From the IMG/VR virus record IMGVR_UViG_3300025383_000009: a stretch of 64,000 bases of DNA; one strand, 5' to 3'. The DNA comes from a virus. Lineage: Duplodnaviria > Caudoviricetes. The stretch's first letter is position 1. Every line of letters begins with the position of its first letter. Shown here piece after piece: positions 38,630-63,935 of the stretch. The position numbers were made by a program, and so were the translations under genes. The notes beneath the pieces are model-generated. The model saw only the letters and a list, made by a program, of their open reading frames with translations. It had not been told where the DNA came from and searched no databases.

Positions 38630-40402
38630 TTATTTTCTCTCGGTTTGCTGTCTCATCCATGAATCATAATCTAGGAGAGTATTAAGGTTTTCTTTTTTAA
38701 TCTTCTTTTCAAAGAAAGCACTAAAGCCTTTGCCTTTTTGTTTATTTGGTTCATCATCTGCTGGTGGTGCCATATTAGCTGGTAGTGGTACAACCTTAGT
38801 AACCTTTTGGCCTTCTACTTCACCGTCTGCCGACTCCTGTGTATACTCGCCGTCTTTTGTGATGTAGCATTCTTTACCGTACTTCTTACCAGCTGCTCCA
38901 GCTTCTCCTCTTGATTTATGAGGGCCAGATAAGATATCGTTTGACGCTGTACATCTTACGTAGTAACCAGCTTCGTGTTCAGGTTTGATCTGTACACCTG
39001 CTGTCTCGTTCTTTGTCATCACAGACTCAGTAGCATACATGACTTTACGTCTACGTAGGTGACGATCTGTCTCTAGTGTATGACCAACTTCGGTATGTTT
39101 ATGGAACGGGTACTTTTGTAAATCATCGATCTGCTGTGAGATGTTAGGGTCTAAGACTTGCTTGATCTCTTTGTCATCAGGTATGATGCCTTGGTTCATC
39201 TTATGTAGTTTCATGAAGTCAGAGTATCTTAATACGTCTTGAGCTATGTTATAGGTGTTAGATACGCCTTCCTTGATAGTCATCTTATCAAGCTCGGCTT
39301 TATGTTTTTCCCAATGTTCTTTGTGAGAATCAAAGCATCCTAGTTTCTCTAGTGATTCTCTTGACTTCTTATGAGCTTCTTGAGCATCCTTAACATGTTT
39401 AAAGCCATATAGTTCTGGCTTGGACGGGTCGAAGTCATAGATCTTAAGGTATGCATCAGTTGTCTTGATAGCATTTAACATAGCAACTGGATCTGTAGCT
39501 TTGTCCATAGTTAGTTTAAAGGCTTTTGAGCCTTGTGGACAATGATGCATATTAGTTGTCGTGTAGCCTTTGTAGGAGATCTCATGACCTTCGTTGACCT
39601 CTACTTGCTCAGGCACACAGTTAGGGACTGTCTTACCATTTTTCTTTTTAAGGCCGATAGCCTTGTAGCCTTTCCAACATGCTTTAGATAGGGACTTAGC
39701 TTCTACTAATGACACATCCTTCACCCATTTCCTATGTAAGGTGCCAGTGTTATCAACTACGACTAGGTAGTTTGATCCACGGTCCATGATCTCGTACTGA
39801 TGACCAGCAGACTCAACGATGTCACCCACATGGTAGATCTCACCTTTAAAGTACTTCTCTCTAAGTATGTCTACTGAGAACTTGATATCTTCTTTGATTA
39901 GTTCAAGACCTTGGACTTGTCTCATCTCGTTCATGATCCTACGAGCGTCAAGTTCACGTACCATTGATGGCAGTTGTTTCTTAAACGATGTAAAGTCACC
40001 CTTGGTGACCATTGATTTGATCTTTGAGAAGTCAACGTCATTGCCTGTGGTGACAACGTTCATTGACTCGTATAGCTTGGCTTTATCTTCTGAAGCAACT
40101 ACGATGACATCCTTGTACCTCTTCTTAAGAGCTGTTAGTTCAGAAGCAAAGTTTGACTCGTTCAATGCCTTAAAGTTCATTGAACCAAACATCATCTCAA
40201 GGAAGTGTAGCTTACGATCTACTGGTAGGCTATCCTTGTCTTCTGTAACATAGATTATGTGGTCGGCAGAGTTTGACTCAACTAGCTTATGGACTAGCTT
40301 AAGAGTCATCTCAGTGACCGAGGTAGGCGGGTTAAAGCTTCCGACTGTCATGATGACGGTCTTAGAAGGCAATTCCCGTATGAGTTGTCTATAGTTCTTC
40401 AT
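38630..40402 (-). CDS. CTS-bearing modular protein with degenerate cytidylyltransferase-like N-domain
   Basis: Starts MKNYRQLIRE; GSFNPPT without the catalytic His; SH3-like segment; CWKGY...VPNCVPE module. Confidence 0.65.
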   Translation of the reverse strand: MKNYRQLIRELPSKTVIMTVGSFNPPTSVTEMTLKLVHKLVESNSADHIIYVTEDKDSLPVDRKLHFLEMMFGSMNFKALNESNFASELTALKKRYKDVIVVASEDKAKLYESMNVVTTGNDVDFSKIKSMVTKGDFTSFKKQLPSMVRELDARRIMNEMRQVQGLELIKEDIKFSVDILREKYFKGEIYHVGDIVESAGHQYEIMDRGSNYLVVVDNTGTLHRKWVKDVSLVEAKSLSKACWKGYKAIGLKKKNGKTVPNCVPEQVEVNEGHEISYKGYTTTNMHHCPQGSKAFKLTMDKATDPVAMLNAIKTTDAYLKIYDFDPSKPELYGFKHVKDAQEAHKKSRESLEKLGCFDSHKEHWEKHKAELDKMTIKEGVSNTYNIAQDVLRYSDFMKLHKMNQGIIPDDKEIKQVLDPNISQQIDDLQKYPFHKHTEVGHTLETDRHLRRRKVMYATESVMTKNETAGVQIKPEHEAGYYVRCTASNDILSGPHKSRGEAGAAGKKYGKECYITKDGEYTQESADGEVEGQKVTKVVPLPANMAPPADDEPNKQKGKGFSAFFEKKIKKENLNTLLDYDSWMRQQTERK

Positions 40403-45429: not shown

Positions 45430-46818
45430 TTAGAACTTGAATCCCGAGAATTCCTCGGTGGCCACCCGTTTGCCAAAGTCGGACTTATCAAAGACTGGTC
45501 TATCATCTTGACCAGAGTCTGCTATGCCTTTCTGAGCTGTGACCTCTACATCATATAGCTTCATCTTAGACCTATCCACACCAATCACAAAACGTTTATA
45601 ATATGATGGATCATTATATCGATTCTTAAGCTGCTTGACCATGATCTGACCAAGGCCCTCAAGATCCTCTGTGGATATAAGAGCTAACATGAGATCAACA
45701 GTTGCTGGCAAACCAAAGGATTCGGATGTGTCCTCAAGACCTGGGTCGGAGTTCGTAAAACCGGACCGAGTAGTCTGTGTGGCACTCACGATAGGTACAT
45801 TATACTCAACTGCCAAACCCCTTAGTTCCTCAGCAATCGTCTTGACATAGGTATAACTGTTTACGTTAGCCCCATATCGAAGTCGTTGTGAACTACAAAT
45901 ATTTAGATAGTCAATGTAGATAATGTCAGGTTGAAACTCTTGTTTAAGTTTTAACTCTTCAAGTAATGCCCTAAAATGACCAGCATGGGCACCGGCAGTT
46001 GGGTATTCCTTGATGATCAACTTACCTTGAGACTTCTTCCTGACCTTATCTAAACGACTATCAAAGATGGGCTTATCGACCACCTTCAACTCATCCATAG
46101 AGAGGTTAAGTAAGTTTGCATCGACACGTTCTGCGATACGTTCCTCTGCCATCTCCATGGTAATATACAACACGTTCTTATTATCAAGTAGGTTTGCTGC
46201 CGCACAATGACACATGAATAATGACTTACCCACGCCTGTACCTGCTAACACTACGTTCAACGTCTTCTTACTTAGACCACCCTTAGTGATCTTATTAAGC
46301 ATATCCAAGTCAAACTTAATCTTTTCTTCTACATGATGATAAAACTCATACCTTTGATCAGAATCAGCAAGATAGGAATGCCCAACATGACTATCGAAAC
46401 TAACGCCAAGAGCATCTGAAAGGAGGCTAGGGATAGCATCCTCTGACCTATTTTTGTCTTTGCCATCGATGATACCGATCGCGTCGAGGATTGCATTATA
46501 GACTGCTTTCTTTTGGCAAAAGTTTTCTGTTTCATTTAATAACCACTCCTCATTAGTGTCTTGTTGTTTCAGTTCAGAGATCAATTGCTGTTGATCTTTT
46601 AAATCGCTGTCAGAGATGTCCTTACGGTTGTTTACTTCTATCGCAAGGATCTCTGGTGTTATTGGTTTGTTATACGTTTCAAAGAACTTAGATATCTCTT
46701 CGAATACGATTGCTTCTTTACGTTCAGAAAAGTACCTACGTTTTAAGAATGGTATGACCTTACGGCTATACTCTTCATTGAATATAAGGTTACTTAGTAT
46801 GGTTGTTTCAATCCTCAT
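45430..46818 (-). CDS. 41: Replicative DNA helicase
   Basis: AGTGVGKS, ITMEMAEE, IDYLN, SATQTTRSG, SESFGLPATVD. Confidence 0.96.
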   Translation of the reverse strand: MRIETTILSNLIFNEEYSRKVIPFLKRRYFSERKEAIVFEEISKFFETYNKPITPEILAIEVNNRKDISDSDLKDQQQLISELKQQDTNEEWLLNETENFCQKKAVYNAILDAIGIIDGKDKNRSEDAIPSLLSDALGVSFDSHVGHSYLADSDQRYEFYHHVEEKIKFDLDMLNKITKGGLSKKTLNVVLAGTGVGKSLFMCHCAAANLLDNKNVLYITMEMAEERIAERVDANLLNLSMDELKVVDKPIFDSRLDKVRKKSQGKLIIKEYPTAGAHAGHFRALLEELKLKQEFQPDIIYIDYLNICSSQRLRYGANVNSYTYVKTIAEELRGLAVEYNVPIVSATQTTRSGFTNSDPGLEDTSESFGLPATVDLMLALISTEDLEGLGQIMVKQLKNRYNDPSYYKRFVIGVDRSKMKLYDVEVTAQKGIADSGQDDRPVFDKSDFGKRVATEEFSGFKF

Positions 46819-47113
46819 CGACACCGCCTGTATAAATTAAATCATTCTTCTTTACACCATCATCAAGCATCTGCATCAATAGATCTCCCACAAACCGTTC
46901 AAACTGGTTTATTTCAGCTTGTGTTTGGAACTCTACTGGATTCTCTATTATATCATAGTGGTACTTTAAAGTACAGTTATCTTGCTCAGGGTTTTCCTTA
47001 AGCTCAACTTTACCCATTAGGAACTTGATACCTTGATATTGGCCCTCAGTGATCTCGATCCCATACTTGTCTACTGAGTATGGGAACTCTTCATATTGGA
47101 TCTTATGCAACAA
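46808..47113 (-). CDS. Hypothetical protein (position of T4 gp40)
   Basis: Lies between uvsX and 41; assignment by synteny only. Confidence 0.5.
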   Translation of the reverse strand: MLHKIQYEEFPYSVDKYGIEITEGQYQGIKFLMGKVELKENPEQDNCTLKYHYDIIENPVEFQTQAEINQFERFVGDLLMQMLDDGVKKNDLIYTGGVDED

Positions 47114-48185
47114 GGTCTTCGTCCTCTATTGCTGCTAGAGATTCATCGATGTCTATATCCTCATCTCGAATGATAGCACCATGAGCGACTTGATACTTGT
47201 CTTTGACTGCATCTTGGAAAGTTTTATCAGTCAAGATGGGCAACCAAAACTCTTTAGAGTCTGTATCCTTGATTCGATACTTATCACCGATCTCACCAGT
47301 ATCTTTGTTTAAGCGAGCAAACCAACCAACAGATGGCTTAACCACATGACCAGTTTCGAGAGCAATATCAAGAAGGCCAGACCACTTGCTAATACCGCCA
47401 TCAAAACTAACAGTAACAGGTATCTTACTTTTTTCTCTGACATATCTAGATTTCTCCACATTAATAATAAAGTTCCAACCAGTTAACTCTGTACCATCCT
47501 TATCTTGTTGACGACCAAGGATGTAGATGTTATCTGCTGAATAGTATGAGCCTGTACCACCACCAACTACTGGTTTAGAGTACATCTCCATAGTCATGTA
47601 AGTATGGTTAACAACAACCATCGGGATATCTTTAAGTGTAAGGTGCGGTGTAACCATACGGAATAATGACTTGATTTGTTTTGCTCTTGACATATCTGCA
47701 ACAGATTTACCGTCAAGCGTATCTTCAACTTCCTTCTTAGAAGCAAGGTTACCGATTGAGTCGATGATAATCATGATCTTGTCATCACGCTCGATGCCTT
47801 GGATCTGCTTCATGATATCAAACTTAAGCTGCTCTACGTCTGTAACTGGAGTATGTAGCACCCTTGTTTGGTCGATACCAAACGATTCAAAGTACGATTG
47901 AGGTGTACCAAACTCTGAATCATAGAATAATAATACTGAATCTTTGTATTTGTCCATGTAAGACTTAGCCATCAGCAATGAGAAAGCTGTCTTAAAGTGT
48001 TTGGATGGACCTGCCCACATCGTTAGACCGGGTGTTAAACCACCGTCAAGTCTACCACTCAATGCAATGTTGATTGCTGGAATGGATGTAGGTATCATGT
48101 CCTTCTTTGTAAAGAACTTAGACTTGGATAATACTTCCGAGTCCTTGATCGTTGAGTTACTTCTGATCTTATCTAATAATCCCAT
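47103..48185 (-). CDS. uvsX: RecA-like recombinase UvsX
   Basis: GPSKHFKT, FYDSEFG, DSIGNLASKKE, DMSRAK. Confidence 0.95.
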   Translation of the reverse strand: MGLLDKIRSNSTIKDSEVLSKSKFFTKKDMIPTSIPAINIALSGRLDGGLTPGLTMWAGPSKHFKTAFSLLMAKSYMDKYKDSVLLFYDSEFGTPQSYFESFGIDQTRVLHTPVTDVEQLKFDIMKQIQGIERDDKIMIIIDSIGNLASKKEVEDTLDGKSVADMSRAKQIKSLFRMVTPHLTLKDIPMVVVNHTYMTMEMYSKPVVGGGTGSYYSADNIYILGRQQDKDGTELTGWNFIINVEKSRYVREKSKIPVTVSFDGGISKWSGLLDIALETGHVVKPSVGWFARLNKDTGEIGDKYRIKDTDSKEFWLPILTDKTFQDAVKDKYQVAHGAIIRDEDIDIDESLAAIEDEDLVA

Positions 48186-48194
48186 GATTTTTCC

Positions 48195-48383
48195 TTATTT
48201 TGTTTTTCTATCAATTTGATTCTGGATCTTACGTTTCTCTTTCTTTGCTGCAGTCTTTTCTAACAACGCTGTTAGTCTTGCTAGGTTATAACCTCTGATA
48301 CGAGGTTTACCGTTCTTATATGTATCAGGATTATTGTGTCTTTTTCCTGGATGAACTTTACCGCCTTTGCCTGGTTGCGCCAT
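48195..48383 (-). CDS. Small basic protein (VHPGKR family), paralog of 10980-11222
   Basis: VHPGKR, GKPR, NL-L-LLEKT, KK-K-KIQ; SD GAGGAG. Confidence 0.65.
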   Translation of the reverse strand: MAQPGKGGKVHPGKRHNNPDTYKNGKPRIRGYNLARLTALLEKTAAKKEKRKIQNQIDRKTK

Positions 48384-48385
48384 GA

Positions 48386-48841
48386 TTACTCCTCATTGAT
48401 TACAAATACTGCAACACCAGCTTCAGCAAACATTGCTATGGACTTTTTCCATGAATCGTTCCAATGTGGCCTAGCTTCGATGCACTGTTTTGATACTACT
48501 ACTTTCTTAATCCCTACTTGGATGATACCCTTTGCACACTCTGAGCATGCTGGTAAACCATGAATGAATATGGTTGAACCGTCTAATGATACGCCTGAGT
48601 ATGTAGCATTATATATTGCATTCATCTCAGCATGTACAATTAATGATAGCTTTAGTTCTCTATCACTTAATCTTTTATTTGAATCAGCTATACCTCTTGG
48701 AAAACCATTATAGCCTTGAGATAAGATCTGACCCTTTGATCCAACTACCACTGCACCAACTTGTGTGTTAGGGTCTTTTGACCATGTAGCTACTTCTTTT
48801 GCAAGCTTGAGGTATCGCTTATACCATTTATTGATCGCCAT
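48386..48841 (-). CDS. cd: dCMP deaminase
   Basis: SKDP-TQVGAV, GYNGFPRG, HAEMNA, PACSEC. Confidence 0.92.
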   Translation of the reverse strand: MAINKWYKRYLKLAKEVATWSKDPNTQVGAVVVGSKGQILSQGYNGFPRGIADSNKRLSDRELKLSLIVHAEMNAIYNATYSGVSLDGSTIFIHGLPACSECAKGIIQVGIKKVVVSKQCIEARPHWNDSWKKSIAMFAEAGVAVFVINEE

Positions 48842-49511
48842 CGATGAACTTAAAATGCCTTTCATAAACATGAAGAGATGCTACGTTCCAATAGATATCA
48901 CCAATTTCAAGTGTTTCTAACCATTCGTTTCTTAAGTCTATTACTAGCTGTTCCAATACATGTTTTTGCCATGCATAATCGTTCTTATAACCAAACACGG
49001 CATCATTTGATCTCATATAGACCAATGCGTTTACTTTATTGTTCCTGATAAGATACTGCACTGCATTAGTACACATAAAGTCTGACATACCACCTTTGTT
49101 ATAATCATCATGCATAGTAGGACGATTATAGATCATTGTAGCTCTACGAGATAGTGGGTTCTTTATGAGTTCATTAAGTACGTTCTCATATTGATCTCCA
49201 TTCTGTTGCGAATAGATGCACCACCCATAGTTTGAGTTGATATATCCATTAGGGTTTGCAACCATTTTCCAGATTTCTGGTGGTCCACCTGGGATGTCAT
49301 TAACGTTAAGTGACATTGACTTATACCATTCTAATTCTCTTTCTACATAGTCATGATTGACTGTACCAAAGATTGATGGTTCATTAGCAAAGAATGCTGC
49401 GTTTATGATCTCAACTGTCTTGACACCAGTCTTATCAGTAACGAAGTCGCCCATCTTTAACTTCTCTTTAAAGATGTTTCTGATATTACTTACACCATAG
49501 ACTGTACTCAT
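48828..49511 (-). CDS. 42: Thymidylate-synthase-family dCMP hydroxymethylase (T4 gp42-like)
   Basis: DFMCTNAVQYLIR, MRSNDAVFGYKNDYAWQ, WNVASLHVYERHF closely match T4 gp42 as recalled; Asp at the specificity position. Confidence 0.8.
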   Translation of the reverse strand: MSTVYGVSNIRNIFKEKLKMGDFVTDKTGVKTVEIINAAFFANEPSIFGTVNHDYVERELEWYKSMSLNVNDIPGGPPEIWKMVANPNGYINSNYGWCIYSQQNGDQYENVLNELIKNPLSRRATMIYNRPTMHDDYNKGGMSDFMCTNAVQYLIRNNKVNALVYMRSNDAVFGYKNDYAWQKHVLEQLVIDLRNEWLETLEIGDIYWNVASLHVYERHFKFIDGDQ

Positions 49512-49849
49512 TTTGTCACCTTCTTATTAAAGATGTCTCGATCTTTGGTTTGACCAGGAACTTGATGTCTAAGGTATGCTACCACAAAGGATGCATAGTT
49601 GATCATGTCAAGAGCAGAGTCTTCAACTGATTCATAGTTAGGTTTACCACCGGCTTCTTGTGCTTCTAATACAGATACCATTCGAAGGTATTTTGCTTTG
49701 ATGATGTCAAGCAATGTCCATACACCATGCTCATAGTAGTCGGCTTGTTGCACACGACTTGAGGCATTGTTATAGTCATTGCCTTTCTTTTCTTGGATAT
49801 CAGCAGCTTCTAATAAGATGTTTGCTGACGGTCTTGAATACTGTTTCAT
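49508..49849 (-). CDS. Nucleotide-modification-associated domain protein (DUF1599/Nmad1-like)
   Basis: KKGNDY, K-LRM, ESVEDSALDMINYASF. Confidence 0.65.
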   Translation of the reverse strand: MKQYSRPSANILLEAADIQEKKGNDYNNASSRVQQADYYEHGVWTLLDIIKAKYLRMVSVLEAQEAGGKPNYESVEDSALDMINYASFVVAYLRHQVPGQTKDRDIFNKKVTK

Positions 49850-49874
49850 AATATAACTCCCATGTTATAGATAC

Positions 49875-49903
49875 ATAATACCACAATTAATATATAAAGT
49901 AAA
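49875..49903 (-). promoter_or_regulatory. sigma70-type promoter
   Basis: TTTACT-N17-TATTAT. Confidence 0.6.
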
Positions 49904-49904
49904 A

Positions 49905-50312
49905 TTATTTTTTAACCCAACCTCTACCATTCCAATCATAGATCCCATTCAATTCATAGTCATCTGATTCTTTGTCATTGATCCATATATAGACACGAGT
50001 AGGATGCGTCCTCCATGACTCTTGTATACGTTCTGCACACCTATCTAATATGTATGGTACATTGCCTATATGTTGTGTAACTTTAACCTCAATAGGCGTA
50101 TCATCGGGTTCAAATAGATCTTTATATGGTCTAGTATCATCGATGTATCCTATCGATAGTAGGTATACCTCTGCTGCTTGACCGTATAAGCATGCTTCAA
50201 GGATCTGTTGGTAGTTTCTACCAGTCTTGTCTTTAACAACTATCTTACTAGCCTCTGCCTCAGCTCGAGCTAATAATAATTGCTGGTCTAGTTTTGATCT
50301 ATTAAATTTCAA
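49905..50312 (-). CDS. Hypothetical protein, possible small PD-(D/E)xK fold
   Basis: GQAAE...YKDL...IEVK. Confidence 0.45.
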   Translation of the reverse strand: MKFNRSKLDQQLLLARAEAEASKIVVKDKTGRNYQQILEACLYGQAAEVYLLSIGYIDDTRPYKDLFEPDDTPIEVKVTQHIGNVPYILDRCAERIQESWRTHPTRVYIWINDKESDDYELNGIYDWNGRGWVKK

Positions 50313-50710
50313 TCGTAGATCTTTTCAAATAATCCGATGTTACCAACATGAGTAGGTGCAACCCAGCCTTCAGGCTTAATAAGATCCGGTAAACCTAGTG
50401 GGTTTGGTCTTGATGCTTTAATACCGACCTCCTTAGTAATATTTGCTGTATACACTTTATCCCATGCCATATTAGCATGTACATCAAATAAATCCAATGT
50501 GCCTATAGCAAACACAGATAAGTCGATCAATGCATCCACCGCATCATCACCGTTCTTTGCTGCTTTAAGTTCATCAAGTTCTTCTTGTAAACACTTGATG
50601 CGGAACTCAAGGAACTCTGCTAACTTATTAGCATCCATCTTTTGCACTACTTCTTTTACACCAAACTTATGGTGCATCTCACTCATATCTTTTGCCCAGT
50701 TGTAACTCAT
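50309..50710 (-). CDS. MazG-like NTP pyrophosphohydrolase
   Basis: LQEELDEL, VDALIDL, AWDKV--AN, IKPEGW. Confidence 0.8.
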   Translation of the reverse strand: MSYNWAKDMSEMHHKFGVKEVVQKMDANKLAEFLEFRIKCLQEELDELKAAKNGDDAVDALIDLSVFAIGTLDLFDVHANMAWDKVYTANITKEVGIKASRPNPLGLPDLIKPEGWVAPTHVGNIGLFEKIYD

Positions 50711-57967: not shown

Positions 57968-58738
57968 TTATACCTCCACATATTTTAATTTAAAAGAACC
58001 GTGCTGATTTTCTCGTGGATATCCACGAGGGTTACACACAACACGGGTTATTCCAATTGTATAATCAAACTCATCATGTGTATGACCATGTACCCATAGT
58101 TTAATATTATCGCTAAGCTCCATCATGTAATCAAGCTTATTATGAAATGCGCCATTCATAAGAGTTTCATGCTTATACTTAGGATGACAACTATTTTCAG
58201 ATGGACTATGATGCGTTATCACTACACAATCTTTAGAGTTGCTCAATGCGTGTTTAATATACTCGAGACTCTTTTTGTTTTCTTTTGTGGATTGCTCAGG
58301 TGTATACTTATAATAGTTTACACCATCAAAGTACTTGACAATCCTAAAATCAGGCATTGAAAATAAAGCAGCGTTCATCGTCATAGGATCTTCATTATTC
58401 ATGTCTGTCCATAGAGTAGAGCCAATAAATGTCTTGTCTTCTAACTCAAACGTTTCATTATCTAATACATGGATGTTCTCCCATGTTGATAATGTTTCCT
58501 TTAGATCGTTTACTGTATCATTAAACATATAGTTATAATGCTCATGGTTACCCACCACATACAGCACATGTTTAAACTGCTCAGAGCAATTCTTAAAAAA
58601 ATCTAAGTATTGATATTTTTGAAGATGCTTAACTACGCATATATCACCTGCAAGGATAAGCACATCAGCGTTCTCAGTATTATTTAATGTAATAGCTTCA
58701 AACTCCAAGTGTAGATCTGATGCGATTGCTAGTTTCAT
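57968..58738 (-). CDS. Calcineurin-like metallophosphoesterase
   Basis: SDLHLE, AGD, VGNHE, THH, VHGHTH, NPRGY. Confidence 0.92.
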   Translation of the reverse strand: MKLAIASDLHLEFEAITLNNTENADVLILAGDICVVKHLQKYQYLDFFKNCSEQFKHVLYVVGNHEHYNYMFNDTVNDLKETLSTWENIHVLDNETFELEDKTFIGSTLWTDMNNEDPMTMNAALFSMPDFRIVKYFDGVNYYKYTPEQSTKENKKSLEYIKHALSNSKDCVVITHHSPSENSCHPKYKHETLMNGAFHNKLDYMMELSDNIKLWVHGHTHDEFDYTIGITRVVCNPRGYPRENQHGSFKLKYVEV

Positions 58739-58979: not shown

Positions 58980-59338
58980 TACCCTCTCCTCATCTTTGAA
59001 ATATCGACTGCGTCTTCTGCTTTAAAAATTGGCACTGCGTTTGATTTGTGCAACTGACCGATACCTAACATAGCATCACCAGTATACTGCATCACGGCTT
59101 TTTTACCAGTCCCACCTGCTCCAGTGTCCAGACTAGGGATATGGCTAGTGCTACGACTAGGATCCACGATAACACGAGGATGATCCAAGCTAATAATACG
59201 GGATGGTTTTTGTACCACTTTTTTAGTAGGTTTAACATCGTACTTCTCCAATAGTTTTTGCCATGAAGCCCTTTGTGCACGTTGCTTGGCGTTTGGCTTA
59301 CGAGGTTTACGTTTAGGTATGTGTGTATGAATAATCAT
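58979..59338 (-). CDS. Basic hypothetical protein
   Basis: YTGD-MLGIGQLHKSNAVPIF, DISKMRR. Confidence 0.65.
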   Translation of the reverse strand: MIIHTHIPKRKPRKPNAKQRAQRASWQKLLEKYDVKPTKKVVQKPSRIISLDHPRVIVDPSRSTSHIPSLDTGAGGTGKKAVMQYTGDAMLGIGQLHKSNAVPIFKAEDAVDISKMRRG

Positions 59339-59673
59339 TAAGCAGATTCCAATTCGTTTTGTTTTTCACGGTAATACTCGAGAAGATCATAAACACGAGT
59401 TGACTCGCTTGAATAGATAACCCAGTTACCATACTCTTGACGAGAAAAGTCGTTGACATACTCGAATCCACCATAATACTTAACACTACGATCGTCAACT
59501 TTGTTGATGATGATATAATCAAAGCCATCAGTGTAAGCGTAGCCAAAAGATCTACGGTCCATACCAAAAGCTTCGGGTTCTACTTTAGTATAGTCTGATC
59601 CATTGAGCATTATCTCAAAGTCTTGATCAAATTTATTTAATAAGTTATACATAATTAATCTCTTCGTTATCAA
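59338..59673 (-). CDS. Early hypothetical protein
   Basis: First gene after a strong promoter. Confidence 0.6.
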   Translation of the reverse strand: MITKRLIMYNLLNKFDQDFEIMLNGSDYTKVEPEAFGMDRRSFGYAYTDGFDYIIINKVDDRSVKYYGGFEYVNDFSRQEYGNWVIYSSESTRVYDLLEYYREKQNELESA

Positions 59674-59684
59674 TTTATATAACT

Positions 59685-59743
59685 ATTATACCAAATTAGC
59701 TAATTAATGTACATAATTAAATATGTATATAAATCAATAACTT
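59685..59743 (-). promoter_or_regulatory. Early promoter with upstream AAGTTATTGAT element
   Basis: TGTACA-N17-TATAAT (59713-59685); AAGTTATTGAT at 59733-59743. Confidence 0.75.
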
Positions 59744-60797
59744 ATGAAAAGAATGATTCTAGGCCTCCGGGGGCGGACTTGGGTGTGTTCCAATACGAAC
59801 CAGTCCAATATGGGTATGATGCCCGTGATAGATGGACTGACTTTGGCTTCTCCATGTATTCGAAGTCAAGCTCACCCTTAGAGTTAATCATGTTGTCTAC
59901 CCATAAGTATACCGGGAACTTGTCTTGAGACATGATCTCTTCTTTGAATATCTGACGAAGGTTGTCACGTTCCTTCTGTGTTCCGGTAAATGGTACACCT
60001 TTATAGTAACCAGTCTTTGGTAATACTCGTGACTCGTTCTCAATAGGTAATAGTTCCCACATAGTCACCTCCGCATCATACATATCTGAGATACGTTGAC
60101 ACTCTTGGATATACTTTGCTGCGAGTTCTTTAGTTGACTGAACCGGATCCGGAAACCTCATGAGATGGTGGCGGATATCGATGTTACCAAAGTAAACTTC
60201 TATTTCGTTATATTTTCCTTCTGGTATGAATGTGTCAAAGCCTTGCTTGATTGCACCATGTAGTGTCTTAAATGGTGTAGACACGTTCATCCATTCTGGT
60301 CGATACATACAAATAGCATGAGAATCCCCAATAGCAATCTTTGGATATCTCTTAGCAAGGTTAGGATCATAAGTGATAGCACGATCTTGTAGATCTTTGA
60401 GGTTGCCCCAATTTACATCATGCCATAAACGATTTATCTTCTTACCATCTTTGATTGCTTTCTCTACACGCGGATACAACATACCATAGTAATCAGGCAT
60501 ATCGATCACTAATGACCATACTGCACCTCTAAAGTTTGATAGCGCGATGATGTACTCGATGTTCGAATAGTTCTCCAACCCACCGAATAAGTTGAGTGAT
60601 CCACCCCAGTCGTTACCATGATAGAGAGCAACCGTATCATATGCATTGTAATCATGTATCTGGTTACCTGTCATGTGTACAGTTACATCCATACCTGCAG
60701 TCATTAGTTGATCTGCATAGATGATACCTTGCGCAGCTTTGTGTGAATGGATCTTGTTAGAAACCGGCGAGAGTGGCTGTGTTAGTAGTAACTTCAT
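59742..60797 (-). CDS. Putative fusion: beta-glucosyltransferase-like N-domain + SGNH/GDSL-like C-domain
   Basis: N-terminal YD-V...LNLFGG...LVID resembles T4 BGT (DYDRLIV...INFFGG...LFTD); C-terminal IAIGDSHA, YFGNIDIRHH. Confidence 0.5.
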   Translation of the reverse strand: MKLLLTQPLSPVSNKIHSHKAAQGIIYADQLMTAGMDVTVHMTGNQIHDYNAYDTVALYHGNDWGGSLNLFGGLENYSNIEYIIALSNFRGAVWSLVIDMPDYYGMLYPRVEKAIKDGKKINRLWHDVNWGNLKDLQDRAITYDPNLAKRYPKIAIGDSHAICMYRPEWMNVSTPFKTLHGAIKQGFDTFIPEGKYNEIEVYFGNIDIRHHLMRFPDPVQSTKELAAKYIQECQRISDMYDAEVTMWELLPIENESRVLPKTGYYKGVPFTGTQKERDNLRQIFKEEIMSQDKFPVYLWVDNMINSKGELDFEYMEKPKSVHLSRASYPYWTGSYWNTPKSAPGGLESFFS

Positions 60798-61656
60798 CTT
60801 TTTTCCATTTTCTATATGAATTTGTTGTGTCAATAATACTATGATCTTTTAATATTGGGTCTGTGCCAACGTTCCACATCAATATATCTCTACCCGTATT
60901 TTTAGGTATGTACTTCCAAACCTTTGCATCGTATGTACGTACTGTTGGGAATGGTGGTAAGTTCTCGTATTTTTCTGGTGTTGCAAACTCTGCAGGTTCT
61001 GATATAAACTCTGCGCGACCTAACTCACCTTCTTGTAAGTTACGGGCTACTGCAACTGAATGGAACTTGGCATTTGGCCATGCTATCTGTAATGCTCGTG
61101 ATAGTACACCAGTACTTATAGCTACATAAACTTCTTCAGGTTCTTTGATCTTACTTGCAGCGTATACGATACCTGCTGTTGCTAGTTCATGCTTCAAACC
61201 AAGTGGGATGAATGCATAACCGTTTTCTTCCGCGTATTTTTTAGCAGCGAGGTTTAGGTTAGGCATCGCTGCTATCCGTTCAAAGTGTACCTCTGCTCCA
61301 CGTTCAATACAACATGCCTGATGATGTGATATCTGCTTGGATGATGGCATGAATAGTACAATCTTTTTACCATGTATCTTTGCTACATCACATAGAGACA
61401 CACCAGCAAGCCCGACTCTTGGCTGTACATAAACTAATGTATCGTTTGGGATCTTGGCTGCAAGCAGATCACCAGCTCTTGTCTTTGTACCAACGATGAG
61501 ATCATCTCGAACAACTCGTACACCTTCATGCATCACTGTAACAGGATCCGGATTGTACGGTGTCCATCCTTCACATAGAGATAGGTAATACTCTTTGGCT
61601 TGTGGCCATGTCATCATACCTACTTCTTTGTTTATACCCTCAACGAACGTTCTCAT
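60757..61656 (-). CDS. PLP-dependent (fold type II, PALP) enzyme
   Basis: VRDDL-GTK (Schiff-base Lys), VAISTGVL, YDAKVW, LMWNV. Confidence 0.75.
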   Translation of the reverse strand: MRTFVEGINKEVGMMTWPQAKEYYLSLCEGWTPYNPDPVTVMHEGVRVVRDDLIVGTKTRAGDLLAAKIPNDTLVYVQPRVGLAGVSLCDVAKIHGKKIVLFMPSSKQISHHQACCIERGAEVHFERIAAMPNLNLAAKKYAEENGYAFIPLGLKHELATAGIVYAASKIKEPEEVYVAISTGVLSRALQIAWPNAKFHSVAVARNLQEGELGRAEFISEPAEFATPEKYENLPPFPTVRTYDAKVWKYIPKNTGRDILMWNVGTDPILKDHSIIDTTNSYRKWKKDEVTTNTATLAGF

Positions 61657-61763
61657 ACTTTCCTCAATTTACAATTATCAAAATGCCATCTTTTCATAGC
61701 AGGTAAACTACCATTTAAACCACAATGGGGGCATACTATGGTTTGTTGAGCTCCTGTAGGCAT
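61653..61763 (-). pseudogene. 36-aa CPHC...RWHFDNC zinc-finger mini-ORF (homing endonuclease C-terminal remnant)
   Basis: MPTGAQQTIVCPHCGLNGSLPAMKRWHFDNCKLRKV, ATGA-coupled to the PLP gene. Confidence 0.55.
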
Positions 61764-61767
61764 CCAT

Positions 61768-62784
61768 TCATGCTGGGAAGACTTTTTTTCCGTCTGGTCG
61801 TTTGGCCAAATCAAAACTATTAGGAAATATCCAATTATATGGTATACGCTTGGTAGGAGATTTTACTCCATGATTGATAGCAATGTGTTTCCAAAATAGA
61901 CATGACTTGTCTTCTATGTTCAACCATTTTTGCTCTCTCATAGGATTGCGAGGATCATTTACTAATATATTCATTTGCTCAAGCCACATGTGTGCATGCT
62001 TGTTCTTAGGTACGAACTGACCATCTGGATCTATCTCATATTGTACCTTACCATTGAGGTTTACACCAAAGATCTGATGCATGCCATCAAAGTGTCCTGT
62101 ACCACCAAACAATACTGACTCAGGATCTACGATATCAGGATATGCCATAGCCATGTATCGTGCAGTGTTCTTGCATGGATACAGTGGACTTCTAAAGTTT
62201 TGTTTCTCTTTGAAATACTTCTCAAGTAGTTTAGCATACTCCATCATGGTGAATGGTCGTCCTAACCTATTACGATGTTTATCTAAAAACTCCCACATCT
62301 CCTCAGCTGCCTTCTTAGGACCATCGATCAGCCAATCTTTAACTAACGTGTTCTTAGGATAGTAGATTTGGAATAGATCATTACGTGCATGTCGGTGTTC
62401 TTTAAAGTGTTCTCTTAGATTCTCTGGACCTTGATACATCAACCGTGTTAGTGTACCCCAATGTTCGTTACTAAATGAGAACGTTAGTGTATACCACAAT
62501 CTTAACTTAGGATCTGTGACCTTCTTCATGATATCACAGAACGGATGTTCATGCCAATGGAGTCTATGCGAAAAGATCTGGTAATCTTCTGCTAACAACT
62601 GATCTCGACGTAGATCAAACTCTTGGCAAAACTCAAAAAACTTATCAAGACGTTTTTCAAGTGGCCAATCTTTCATCCATGATTCAGTAGGTTTGCCATC
62701 TTTTAATACTACAGGACTTGTACCCTTATAGGTAATATTCTTATACTCGATACCAGATATGAATTGAGCTAGAGTGTTTTGCAT
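61768..62784 (-). CDS. Amino acid/amine:DNA transferase-like protein (aGPT-Pplase1-like), paralog B
   Basis: D-LL---Y-F-HR, LTFSFSN, AMAYPDIVDPES-LFGGTG, NIEDKSCLFWKH. Confidence 0.55.
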   Translation of the reverse strand: MQNTLAQFISGIEYKNITYKGTSPVVLKDGKPTESWMKDWPLEKRLDKFFEFCQEFDLRRDQLLAEDYQIFSHRLHWHEHPFCDIMKKVTDPKLRLWYTLTFSFSNEHWGTLTRLMYQGPENLREHFKEHRHARNDLFQIYYPKNTLVKDWLIDGPKKAAEEMWEFLDKHRNRLGRPFTMMEYAKLLEKYFKEKQNFRSPLYPCKNTARYMAMAYPDIVDPESVLFGGTGHFDGMHQIFGVNLNGKVQYEIDPDGQFVPKNKHAHMWLEQMNILVNDPRNPMREQKWLNIEDKSCLFWKHIAINHGVKSPTKRIPYNWIFPNSFDLAKRPDGKKVFPA

Positions 62785-63935
62785 AGTTCCTTATATTGAT
62801 CCACTGTCATATTATGTATCTTCAAGACATAATCGTCTGAAGGATGAGATGTTAATCTATTGAATGAATCTATTAGTTTAAGATCAAGCATTGCTTTCTG
62901 TCTACCGAATGGATGATCTAAGATCTTACATGATGAGAATATAACATCACGATCTATATGGTTATAGTCTGATCCAGGTCGTACATAGTTTTCTACCCAA
63001 CGGATGAAGTCACAGCACACGTCTTCTGCATTATATGGGTATGCACCAGTCTCTACATAGATCCGTTCCATAACTTGATCGAGGAACTCTTCTTGCTTCA
63101 TCTTAGTTAATGGTTTTGCAAGATATGAGATACACTCTACTGCATTTGTACCGTAGTAGAACGGTGATGTCTTATCAACGTACTGTGGGTACCAATCAGC
63201 CACGTCTGCAACTACTGCAGCATACTGGAAGTGGTACTGTCTTAAGTTATTCTTAACGTTCCAATCTAACATGAACGAACCGATCTCTCTTAGTGATCTC
63301 TGTCCACCAGATTCTAAAAACTCTGCTAGTTCTCTTGCTAATCGTGGTGCATACTCTGATAGGTAATAATCTCCACCACGTTTATATCTTGATCCTGCAG
63401 GTGGTTTAGGAAATGCTGGGAATTGGTATCCAACAGAAGTGTAGAAGGAGTATGGATAGTTGTTCACCATCTCGACCATGTCCTCAATAGTCTTACAGTT
63501 ATGTAGCGAGAACAATAAGGTATTGTGGTATCCACTAGGTTTCGTACTGTAATTAATTGCAGAACCACATACACGATGGAGGATGAATATGTACAGCCAT
63601 TCGGGCAGTTTAAAGTCGGAATGTTTTCCTGTCCAGTTATGTGCTACAGTATCTCGTTGATGTGTGATCTTACCTGCTTCCATCTTTTTCCAATATGGAT
63701 GCTGATCCGTCCAACCATAAAAGCAATCATTAACGATCTGAGAGAAACCTGCATACTTACGTTCGACCACATCATACAATTCTACATGATGCAGTAGATC
63801 ATCATTCATGTTTGACTCTACATGTGATATCATGCCATAAGGTGGTGTAAGAGATACATTACACTTCTCTTGCTGATCCTTTGCAAGGTTAAAGTATCTT
63901 ATGTACTCATCATAGTATTGTGTTGTTTCAATCAA
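62769..63935 (-). CDS. Amino acid/amine:DNA transferase-like protein (aGPT-Pplase1-like), paralog A
   Basis: DDLL---ELYDVVER, LHRVCGS, VADVADWYPQYVD-S-FYYGTNA, NAEDVCCDFIRW; TTG start overlapping the upstream TGA. Confidence 0.6.
   Translation of the reverse strand: MIETTQYYDEYIRYFNLAKDQQEKCNVSLTPPYGMISHVESNMNDDLLHHVELYDVVERKYAGFSQIVNDCFYGWTDQHPYWKKMEAGKITHQRDTVAHNWTGKHSDFKLPEWLYIFILHRVCGSAINYSTKPSGYHNTLLFSLHNCKTIEDMVEMVNNYPYSFYTSVGYQFPAFPKPPAGSRYKRGGDYYLSEYAPRLARELAEFLESGGQRSLREIGSFMLDWNVKNNLRQYHFQYAAVVADVADWYPQYVDKTSPFYYGTNAVECISYLAKPLTKMKQEEFLDQVMERIYVETGAYPYNAEDVCCDFIRWVENYVRPGSDYNHIDRDVIFSSCKILDHPFGRQKAMLDLKLIDSFNRLTSHPSDDYVLKIHNMTVDQYKELCKTL

Follow-up and report, generated by a model that had tools for sequence, protein, structure and literature searches.

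The window analysed here is a 64,000-nucleotide stretch of viral DNA (Duplodnaviria, Caudoviricetes; IMG/VR record IMGVR_UViG_3300025383_000009) from a T4-like phage that encodes a family-B DNA polymerase, a gp41-type helicase, UvsX, a ribonucleotide reductase and a ligase. Towards the end of the window lies gene D, the subject of this study, whose product joins an N-terminal part related to T4 β-glucosyltransferase (BGT) to a C-terminal domain with an SGNH-hydrolase fold. Gene D closes a unit of four genes, A, B, C and D, and very probably takes part in modifying 5-hydroxymethylcytosine (5hmC) after replication. The genes of the unit, the two parts of D and the end of the unit are as follows (ORF, open reading frame).

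59742-60797, minus strand: gene D, a 351-residue hybrid protein (P0001); ATG at 60797; last gene of the A-B-C-D unit
60459-60797, minus strand: BGT-homologous region of D, residues 1-113 by hhalign; as folded, the domain extends to about residue 145 (60363)
59802-60356, minus strand: SGNH-hydrolase-fold domain of D, residues 148-332, with GDSHA at 157-161 (Ser159 codon at 60321-60323), GNID at 204-207 and His322 in MEKPKSVHLS
60757-61656, minus strand: gene C, a 299-residue divergent protein resembling fold-type-II pyridoxal-phosphate (PLP) enzymes; overlaps the start of D by 41 nt
61768-62784, minus strand: gene B, a 338-residue helical protein
62769-63935, minus strand: gene A, a 388-residue helical protein with a putative HhH DNA-glycosylase-like fold; the most conserved gene of the unit
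59685-59713, minus strand: sigma-70-like extended -10 promoter from a consensus scan (TGTACA-17-TATAAT with a TG extension), starting 29 nt past the D stop, ahead of a small ORF at 59338-59673

By the list of ORFs and the translation, the frame that the initial annotation had proposed for D is real, lies on the minus strand and encodes 351 amino acids. A TTG codon 36 nt upstream of the ATG would add 12 residues; we took the ATG as the start because the D homologues and BGT both begin at the MK(I/L) encoded there. The position of the promoter just past the D stop fits an end of the unit at this point, with D as the last gene of its transcription unit; across the region, the promoter and terminator scans returned a number of sites not above the shuffled expectation.

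The D family is large and essentially confined to phages. Full-length matches gave over 1100 clusters with a 90% identity cut-off and 406 with one of 50%, and the two halves of the protein nearly always occur together. A survey of 185,579 species genomes yielded only 20 loci; 15 sit in records labelled as metagenome-assembled genomes and 5 in a metagenome bin. Relatives occur in cultured Aeromonas phages (44RR2.8t, 31, 25 and Aes508) and in Tenacibaculum phage PTm1. D matches PHROG 13881/17781, neither of which has an assigned function; the databases name family members 'hypothetical protein' throughout. Searches of D against PDB sequences, by sequence and by family profile, gave nothing useful, NCBIfam gave no match, and neither did megablast of the region against cultured phages. 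Locus searches with the single distant members P0164 and P0152 found none, and the nearest genome record (G001) is without gene D.

A glycosyltransferase half-domain joined to an SGNH fold

Residue conservation and an AlphaFold2 model were both derived from an alignment of 93 family members (A1). The invariant residues, D158, S159, H160, T178, D207, H211, R257, G272, R277, E316 and H322, all fall in the C-terminal half, and S18, H19, G61, N69 and G73 are near-invariant in the N-terminal half.

The N-terminal half was compared with BGT (PF09198; GT-B fold; PDB 1BGT/1JG6) by profile-profile alignment. With hhalign, A1 aligned with a profile of eight BGTs of 28-100% identity (A2) at a probability of 96.9% and an E-value of 1.6e-10 over 104 columns, placing residues 1-113 of D on residues 1-118 of BGT; against T4 BGT alone, the probability was 87% and the E-value 4e-6. 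The YD and N(L/F)FGG motifs that the initial annotation had read as echoes of BGT are aligned, and so is VID/FTD, with YD preceding strand 3 and the N-(L/F)-F-G-G loop common to both proteins. In the model, the first 145 residues form a small α/β domain, in which the element order β-α-β-β-α-β agrees with the aligned BGT segments. Single-sequence scans reach the same family below threshold: the Pfam T4-Gluco-transf model matched residues 43-112 of D with an E-value of 0.045 (13.9 bits against a cut-off of 27), and when the 93 members were scanned one by one, the only recurring families were T4-Gluco-transf (11 members; best E-value 0.0016) and GDSL/SGNH (9 members), all sub-threshold. As judged from these profile comparisons, the first ~115 residues of D are shown to descend from the N-terminal domain of a T4-type BGT.

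The remainder of BGT is not found in D. The alignment ends at BGT residue 118, ahead of the C-terminal UDP-glucose-binding domain with its residues R191, R195 and R269, invariant in the BGT alignment. When three near-complete genomes of related phages were scanned with a BGT profile, it matched only the N-terminal part of the D homologue (E-values 3e-5 to 1.5e-7) and found no full-length BGT. S18, H19, N69 and G73 are located where strands of the N-domain end; to judge from general α/β geometry, they probably point into the interdomain cleft of D.

In place of the UDP-glucose domain stands an SGNH fold. The AlphaFold2 model of D is confident (pLDDT 95.7, pTM 0.92), and its C-terminal half adopts the three-layer α/β/α arrangement of SGNH proteins. 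By Foldseek, residues ~148-332 matched 2hsj with an E-value of 1.5e-7, together with platelet-activating factor (PAF) acetylhydrolase, sialate O-acetylesterases and many 'GDSL lipases'. Searched whole against a library of viral structures (BFVD), the model retrieved Aeromonas phage 31 ORF233c, the Tenacibaculum PTm1 protein and an uncultured phage protein, followed by SGNH proteins, with a few weak GT-B matches annotated 'Glycosyl transferases group 1' (probability 0.6-0.87); in whole-model searches, the SGNH domain fills the match lists. The structural comparison and hhalign together bear out the domain composition put forward in the initial annotation, an N-terminal BGT part followed by an SGNH domain where BGT binds UDP-glucose.

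The motifs named there, GDSHA (G157, D158, S159, H160) and GNID (G204, N205, I206, D207), are present in D and can be set against the SGNH sequence blocks. Block I (GDS) has a near-invariant G157 and invariant D158 and S159, with a strand before the site and a helix starting at it in the model. TLHGA (G181) and GNID (N205) lie at the sequence places expected of blocks II and III, and near the C-terminus no histidine other than H322 is invariant. The invariant E316 might, from its conservation, act as the catalytic acid. Two other readings of the motifs were set aside: a calcineurin-type metallophosphoesterase site (GDSHA...GNID...HH) was rejected in view of the confident model with its SGNH topology, and a Ser-His phosphoryl site like that of phosphohexomutases receives no support from the fold. 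A calcineurin-like metallophosphoesterase lies 1 kb downstream of D (57968-58738, minus strand; Pfam E-value 2e-12, PHROG 1649); it is not kept beside the cluster in relatives.

Partner genes and their linkage to D

Gene C matches PHROG 7093, 'threonine dehydratase' (E-value 2.9e-37), and has weak similarity to the cysteine synthase CysK. Within its family alignment, Lys58 in the motif GTKTR is invariant and is a candidate for the PLP-binding lysine. The fold class of C is also that of TrpB-like PLP decarboxylases, and the PLP decarboxylases of the thymidine hypermodification pathways (ViI gp226 and M6 gp52) model on a TrpB-like fold (PMC8989533). Domains 34-35% identical to C occur within genes annotated 'DNA modification methylase' in Erythrobacter phages vB_EliS_R6L and ZS04 and Microcystis phage Mae-JY30 (H101-H103); these may be further fusions of the PLP-type domain with DNA-modifying enzymes. 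Across the 111-nt gap between B and C lies a 53-residue ORF with a CPHC...C motif (61653-61814, minus strand), found in two very close relatives only, which may not be a gene.

Proteins A and B have no match in Pfam (E-value cut 0.1, PF18724 and PF18723 included) or in PHROG. In a protein-language-model atlas, both adjoin clusters in which 11-36% of the members carry HMUDK_hel (PF18723) or amino-acid:DNA transferase (AADT; PF18724) domains; for B the share is 12-36%, at a feature score of 0.97-0.98. The model of A is all-helical and of moderate confidence (pLDDT 74.9, pTM 0.79); its nearest solved structure is the AADT of phage PaMx11 (gp46/PUGT), and Foldseek also ranks that protein first, at a non-significant E-value of 0.49. 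PUGT is a base-flipping enzyme with a glycosylase-like fold (PMC11472151). By hhalign, A against B reached an E-value of only 0.01 (probability 4%), and neither protein aligned with the HMUDK_hel partner or the Aeromonas fusion protein described below; BLASTP of that 795-residue fusion protein against A and B also gave nothing. Searches of the PDB with profiles of A, B and C gave weak matches or none, and tblastn of A and B against cultured phages gave no match. Because sequence profiles link A and B neither to each other nor to the HMUDK_hel partner, we call them AADT-like by fold and context and do not count them as family members.

The four genes stay linked, in rearranged order, in hundreds of uncultured T4-like phage contigs. 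Of 46 IMG/VR loci with D, 39 have C, 27 have A and 26 have B, and where a gene is missing the contig usually ends there; the order is invariably A-B-C-D, and the genes downstream are not conserved. Over the first two scans, C was linked to D in 75 loci. A distant subgroup of 80 loci, 27-39% identical to D, is arranged as D-A-B-C in 57 and has C linked in 38, and in its other 23 loci (within L130-L208) A-B-C is replaced, after D, by a myo-inositol-1-phosphate-synthase-like gene, a 133-residue gene with a weak polynucleotide-kinase PHROG match and a 485-residue gene, H485, whose product passes the Pfam threshold for HMUDK_hel (PF18723) with 37 bits. D is therefore paired with A (57/80) or with an HMUDK_hel protein (23/80), and the two are never found together. 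The existence of this alternative cassette suggests that the D core also serves another cytosine decoration, one perhaps derived from a sugar phosphate. Further orders, D-C-A, H485-D and gp42-cd-D, occur among the 20 loci from binned genomes.

The same partnerships recur within single polypeptides. D is fused to A in a 786-residue protein on a 225-kb viral contig (L131:2379-4739), to a ~460-residue helical part related to the HMUDK_hel partner in a 795-residue protein of Aeromonas phages 44RR2.8t and 31, and to a methyltransferase and HMUDK_hel in a protein of 981 residues. From linkage in several orders, together with the fusions, we conclude that the constant core is D plus a helical partner. 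The initial annotation's reading of D as a repurposed BGT half is to be qualified here: D is no stand-alone enzyme but belongs to a four-gene, probably five-gene, pathway with a constant HhH-type helical partner, which may itself flip the base. The fifth gene would be a conserved 141-residue ORF that lies directly before A in 24 loci (L009:4555-4980; also L003, L005, L006, L042 and L051-L053), at a position beyond the end of the window; it has no Pfam or PHROG match, and its conservation there makes a unit of five genes probable.

Three other neighbours were noted. A 100-residue DUF6378 protein is encoded immediately upstream of D in most distant loci (74 of 80; L144:8685-8984), and not in the window's group. 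A large (590-618 residues) cytidylyltransferase-like protein, probably of nucleotide or cofactor metabolism, is encoded in the window (38630-40402, minus strand) and within ~7 kb of D in the distant subgroup (L172:3481-5334). The Aeromonas fusion gene adjoins a gene annotated as a sodium-dependent galactose transporter.

These arrangements bear on whether D is a hydrolase of the 5hmC pathway, removing an ester-linked group from a DNA intermediate or a donor in a trimming or deprotection step while something else activates the hydroxymethyl group. Esterases and deacetylases make up most of the solved SGNH proteins that match the D model, the serine and histidine of the pair are both invariant, and in the window's group the unit ends with D, all in keeping with such a role. 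In the D-A-B-C order, however, D comes first, and it stays with a helical protein even where C and B are missing, as in the H485-D pairs and the Aeromonas fusion, where there is nothing obvious to trim and no activating enzyme is seen. We consider a purely hydrolytic role unlikely.

A 5hmC-making phage and the b-gt position

The window encodes the presumed source of the substrate that a BGT-like domain would meet. The genes concerned lie on the same strand as D in a T4-like block (45430-50710, minus strand) that runs, in the direction of transcription, from a MazG/PRA-PH gene through three small ORFs, the gp42-type gene, the dCMP deaminase gene, uvsX and a small ORF to the gp41-type helicase gene.

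50309-50710, minus strand: MazG-like (PRA-PH) pyrophosphohydrolase, Pfam PF01503 with E-value 8e-6; candidate dCTPase of the 5hmC module
48828-49511, minus strand: gp42-type dCMP hydroxymethylase, phmmer E-value 7e-85 to T4 1B49 and 58 bits to Pfam PF00303; ~10 kb downstream of D
48386-48871, minus strand: dCMP deaminase by Pfam and PHROG, adjoining the hydroxymethylase
47103-48185, minus strand: UvsX, after dCMP deaminase, as in T4
45430-46824, minus strand: gp41-type helicase, after UvsX, as in T4

The hydroxymethylase keeps the equivalent of the cytosine-specifying Asp179 (in KNDYAW), and, to judge by its sequence, is the source of 5hmC. In the window, ~10 kb with the DNA polymerase and ligase genes come between A-D and gene 42, whereas relatives have A-D directly between gene 42 and uvsX. 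The complete relative G002 (152.7 kb, with terminal repeats) reads gene 42 - dCMP deaminase (cd) - orf141 - A - B - C - D - uvsX - gp41, and the T4 map reads 42 - b-gt - segA - uvsX - 40 - 41; the cluster thus fills the slot of b-gt. Of the 20 loci from binned genomes, 15 have a gp42-type gene no more than a few kb from D, the hydroxymethylase of the distant D subgroup is closest to the cytosine enzymes MilA and gp42, and Aeromonas phage 44RR2.8t.2 has a thymidylate synthase gene and a gp42-type gene, with no BGT and no C. HMUDK_hel (PF18723) was not found in G002-G004. Context of this kind, comprising the gp42-type hydroxymethylase, the b-gt-equivalent position and the DNA-transferase-like partners, strongly supports the link to modified cytosine that the initial annotation had drawn.

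It also leaves little room for D as an ordinary phage esterase acting on envelope or lipid, with no role on DNA and a resemblance to BGT that arose by chance at the level of the fold. Phage tail and lysis proteins commonly contain SGNH domains, and all the Pfam matches of D are below threshold. Against this stand the profile-profile E-value of 1.6e-10 to BGT and the tight linkage of D to gp42, to AADT-like proteins and to replication genes in hundreds of contigs, in several orders and in fusions. The genes annotated around D serve replication, recombination and nucleotide metabolism, and no signal peptide or structural-gene context was seen for D. An ordinary esterase is already disfavoured by this evidence and is extremely improbable.

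A further question is whether D acts on DNA or on a small molecule, either hydroxymethyl-dCMP/dCTP before incorporation or a donor metabolite, with the BGT-like part serving only as a scaffold. Only ~115 residues of BGT are kept. D99 aligns with BGT Asp100, which is invariant in the BGT alignment and which we take to be the catalytic base of BGT, and the aligned column is not conserved among the 93 family members. The alternative cassette includes a myo-inositol-phosphate-synthase-like enzyme, a maker of a small-molecule donor, and the 5hmC carbamoyltransferase also accepts 5hmdCTP (PMC8670742). On the other hand, D is fused to domains of apparent HhH DNA-enzyme type, many of its conserved arginine and histidine residues would suit a DNA backbone, and the thymidine pathways with the same partner folds act after replication (PMC8989533). 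A small-molecule substrate is, in our view, quite improbable. The N-domain may still bind flipped 5hmC; we infer this and put it no more strongly because D99 is not conserved and the homology is limited to the first ~115 residues.

A candidate acyl-activation route and its place among known systems

The closest parallel to the gene set as a whole is thymidine hypermodification in phages M6, ViI, PaMx11 and PhiW-14, with its 5-hydroxymethyluridine DNA kinase (5-HMUDK), AADT/aGPT-Pplase and PLP decarboxylase (PMC5889632, PMC8989533, PMC11472151). There, the kinase phosphorylates 5-hydroxymethyluracil (5hmU) in DNA, the AADT displaces the phosphate and the PLP enzyme decarboxylates the product (PMC8989533). 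The D clusters resemble these systems in the synthesis of a hydroxymethylpyrimidine before replication, the paired helical HhH-like proteins of transferase type, the TrpB-fold PLP enzyme and the shuffling and fusion of genes. They differ in the base, which here is cytosine (supplied by a gp42-type enzyme with Asp, not by a 5hmU source such as dUMP hydroxymethylase or TET/JBP), in that A and B match neither the AADT nor the HMUDK_hel Pfam model, and in that no P-loop kinase is seen in the D cluster, where D has the place that an activating enzyme would take.

By analogy, we propose that D takes over that activation by acylation. D would dock on 5hmC-containing DNA, and an acyl group carried by Ser159 would be passed to the 5-CH2OH of the cytosine. 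The resulting ester would act as a leaving group, the role played by the phosphate from the 5-hydroxymethyldeoxyuridine (5-hmdU) DNA kinase in thymidine hypermodification. A and B, as AADT-like proteins, would replace the ester with an amino acid or amine, and C would trim the attached group, for example by decarboxylation, to leave a non-sugar cytosine hypermodification that shields the viral genome against host nucleases. A precedent for O-acylated 5hmC in phage DNA is 5-carbamoyloxymethylcytosine (PMC8670742). On balance, we regard this order of events, in which D esterifies, A and B displace and C trims, as plausible, somewhat short of probable.

Several observations weigh against it. The canonical DxxH of block V is absent, K319 lying three residues before H322, and block III varies between N and S across the family. 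Beyond the Ser/His pair, H160, D207, H211, R257, R277 and E316 are invariant, and the extra Arg, His and Asp residues hint at chemistry beyond that of a simple esterase. The column of the presumed BGT base is not conserved. No P-loop 5-HMUDK was seen in the conserved clusters, where no search was aimed at P-loops and the window's genome was not covered exhaustively. Finally, the known cytoplasmic SGNH enzymes are mostly hydrolases, and SGNH acyltransferases usually use esters or a membrane partner, not acetyl-CoA.

The acyl or aminoacyl ester might instead be the final decoration, installed by D and left on 5hmC, with the helical partners mainly presenting the flipped base or tailoring the group later. 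Minimal systems of D plus a helical protein exist, BGT, the source of the N-domain, also installs a final group, and phages with the same accessory genes are known to have O-carbamoylated 5hmC as an end product (PMC8670742). By general chemistry, however, an ester on a benzylic-type hydroxymethyl of a pyrimidine is labile; A, which is conserved more than any other gene of the unit, has as its nearest solved structure a catalytic transferase acting by displacement of a leaving group; and the frequently linked PLP enzyme suggests processing of a free amino-acid moiety. An ester as the end product is therefore distinctly unlikely.

Set against its relatives one by one, D shares with BGT the homologous first ~115 residues, including the N-F-F-G-G loop, and the slot between gene 42 and uvsX in the complete relative, in a lineage whose window phage encodes 5hmC synthesis. 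Unlike BGT, which works alone, D has partner enzymes; it carries an SGNH fold instead of the UDP-glucose domain, its Asp100 column is not conserved and it falls below the Pfam threshold. The SGNH/GDSL enzymes compared (PAF acetylhydrolase 1BWP, sialate O-acetylesterase 7PZG, Streptococcus pneumoniae 2HSJ, PatB 7TJB and OatA 6VJP) share its fold; D differs from them in its sub-threshold sequence similarity, in its lack of the DxxH acid, in an insertion of ~60 residues ahead of the His, in its extra invariant His, Arg and Asp residues, in its fusion to a glycosyltransferase half-domain and in its substrate, which would be a DNA base. We know of no SGNH enzyme that acts on a DNA base, and the literature searches turned up none. 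The 5hmC carbamoyltransferase that forms 5cmdC, found by MetaGPA, likewise places a non-sugar, O-acyl-type decoration on 5hmC in uncultured phages, and the window shares with the modified-cytosine contigs the accessory set of a TS-family hydroxymethylase, PRA-PH/MazG and dCMP deaminase (PMC8670742). That enzyme, in contrast, belongs to an unrelated TobZ-like family, depends on ATP and carbamoyl phosphate, and acts alone, with no helical or PLP partners.

Full-text literature searches returned no paper linking an SGNH/GDSL protein or a kinase-less AADT-type cluster to 5hmC. The domain architecture of D is undescribed in the literature searched, and new chemistry is plausible but unproven. Tentatively, and with more doubt than conviction, we suggest that D is the first SGNH-fold enzyme to acylate a DNA base, replacing the 5-hydroxymethylpyrimidine DNA kinase in a widespread and apparently kinase-less pathway; that the product is an amino-acid- or amine-derived 5-substituted cytosine new to chemistry; and that D arose through replacement of the sugar-donor domain of a T4-type BGT by an esterase fold.

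Which restriction and CRISPR defences work against a phage is decided by the hypermodifications of its DNA, and these have also supplied tools such as BGT for the mapping of 5hmC. To our knowledge, the elaborate non-sugar pathways described so far start from thymine and need a DNA kinase, and the known cytosine cases are sugars and one carbamoyl group. Because a hybrid of BGT and an esterase fold is always accompanied by proteins resembling the amino-acid transferases of thymine modification, in a phage that makes hydroxymethylcytosine, D probably helps to build a cytosine decoration that has so far had no chemical description. The gene set, very common in uncultured aquatic T4-like phages and also carried by cultured phages of Aeromonas and Tenacibaculum, suggests a third route for cytosine, and the existence of cultured carriers makes the question directly testable. 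Once confirmed, such chemistry would mean a new DNA base and a new means of activating 5hmC, and might yield a new reagent for 5hmC labelling.

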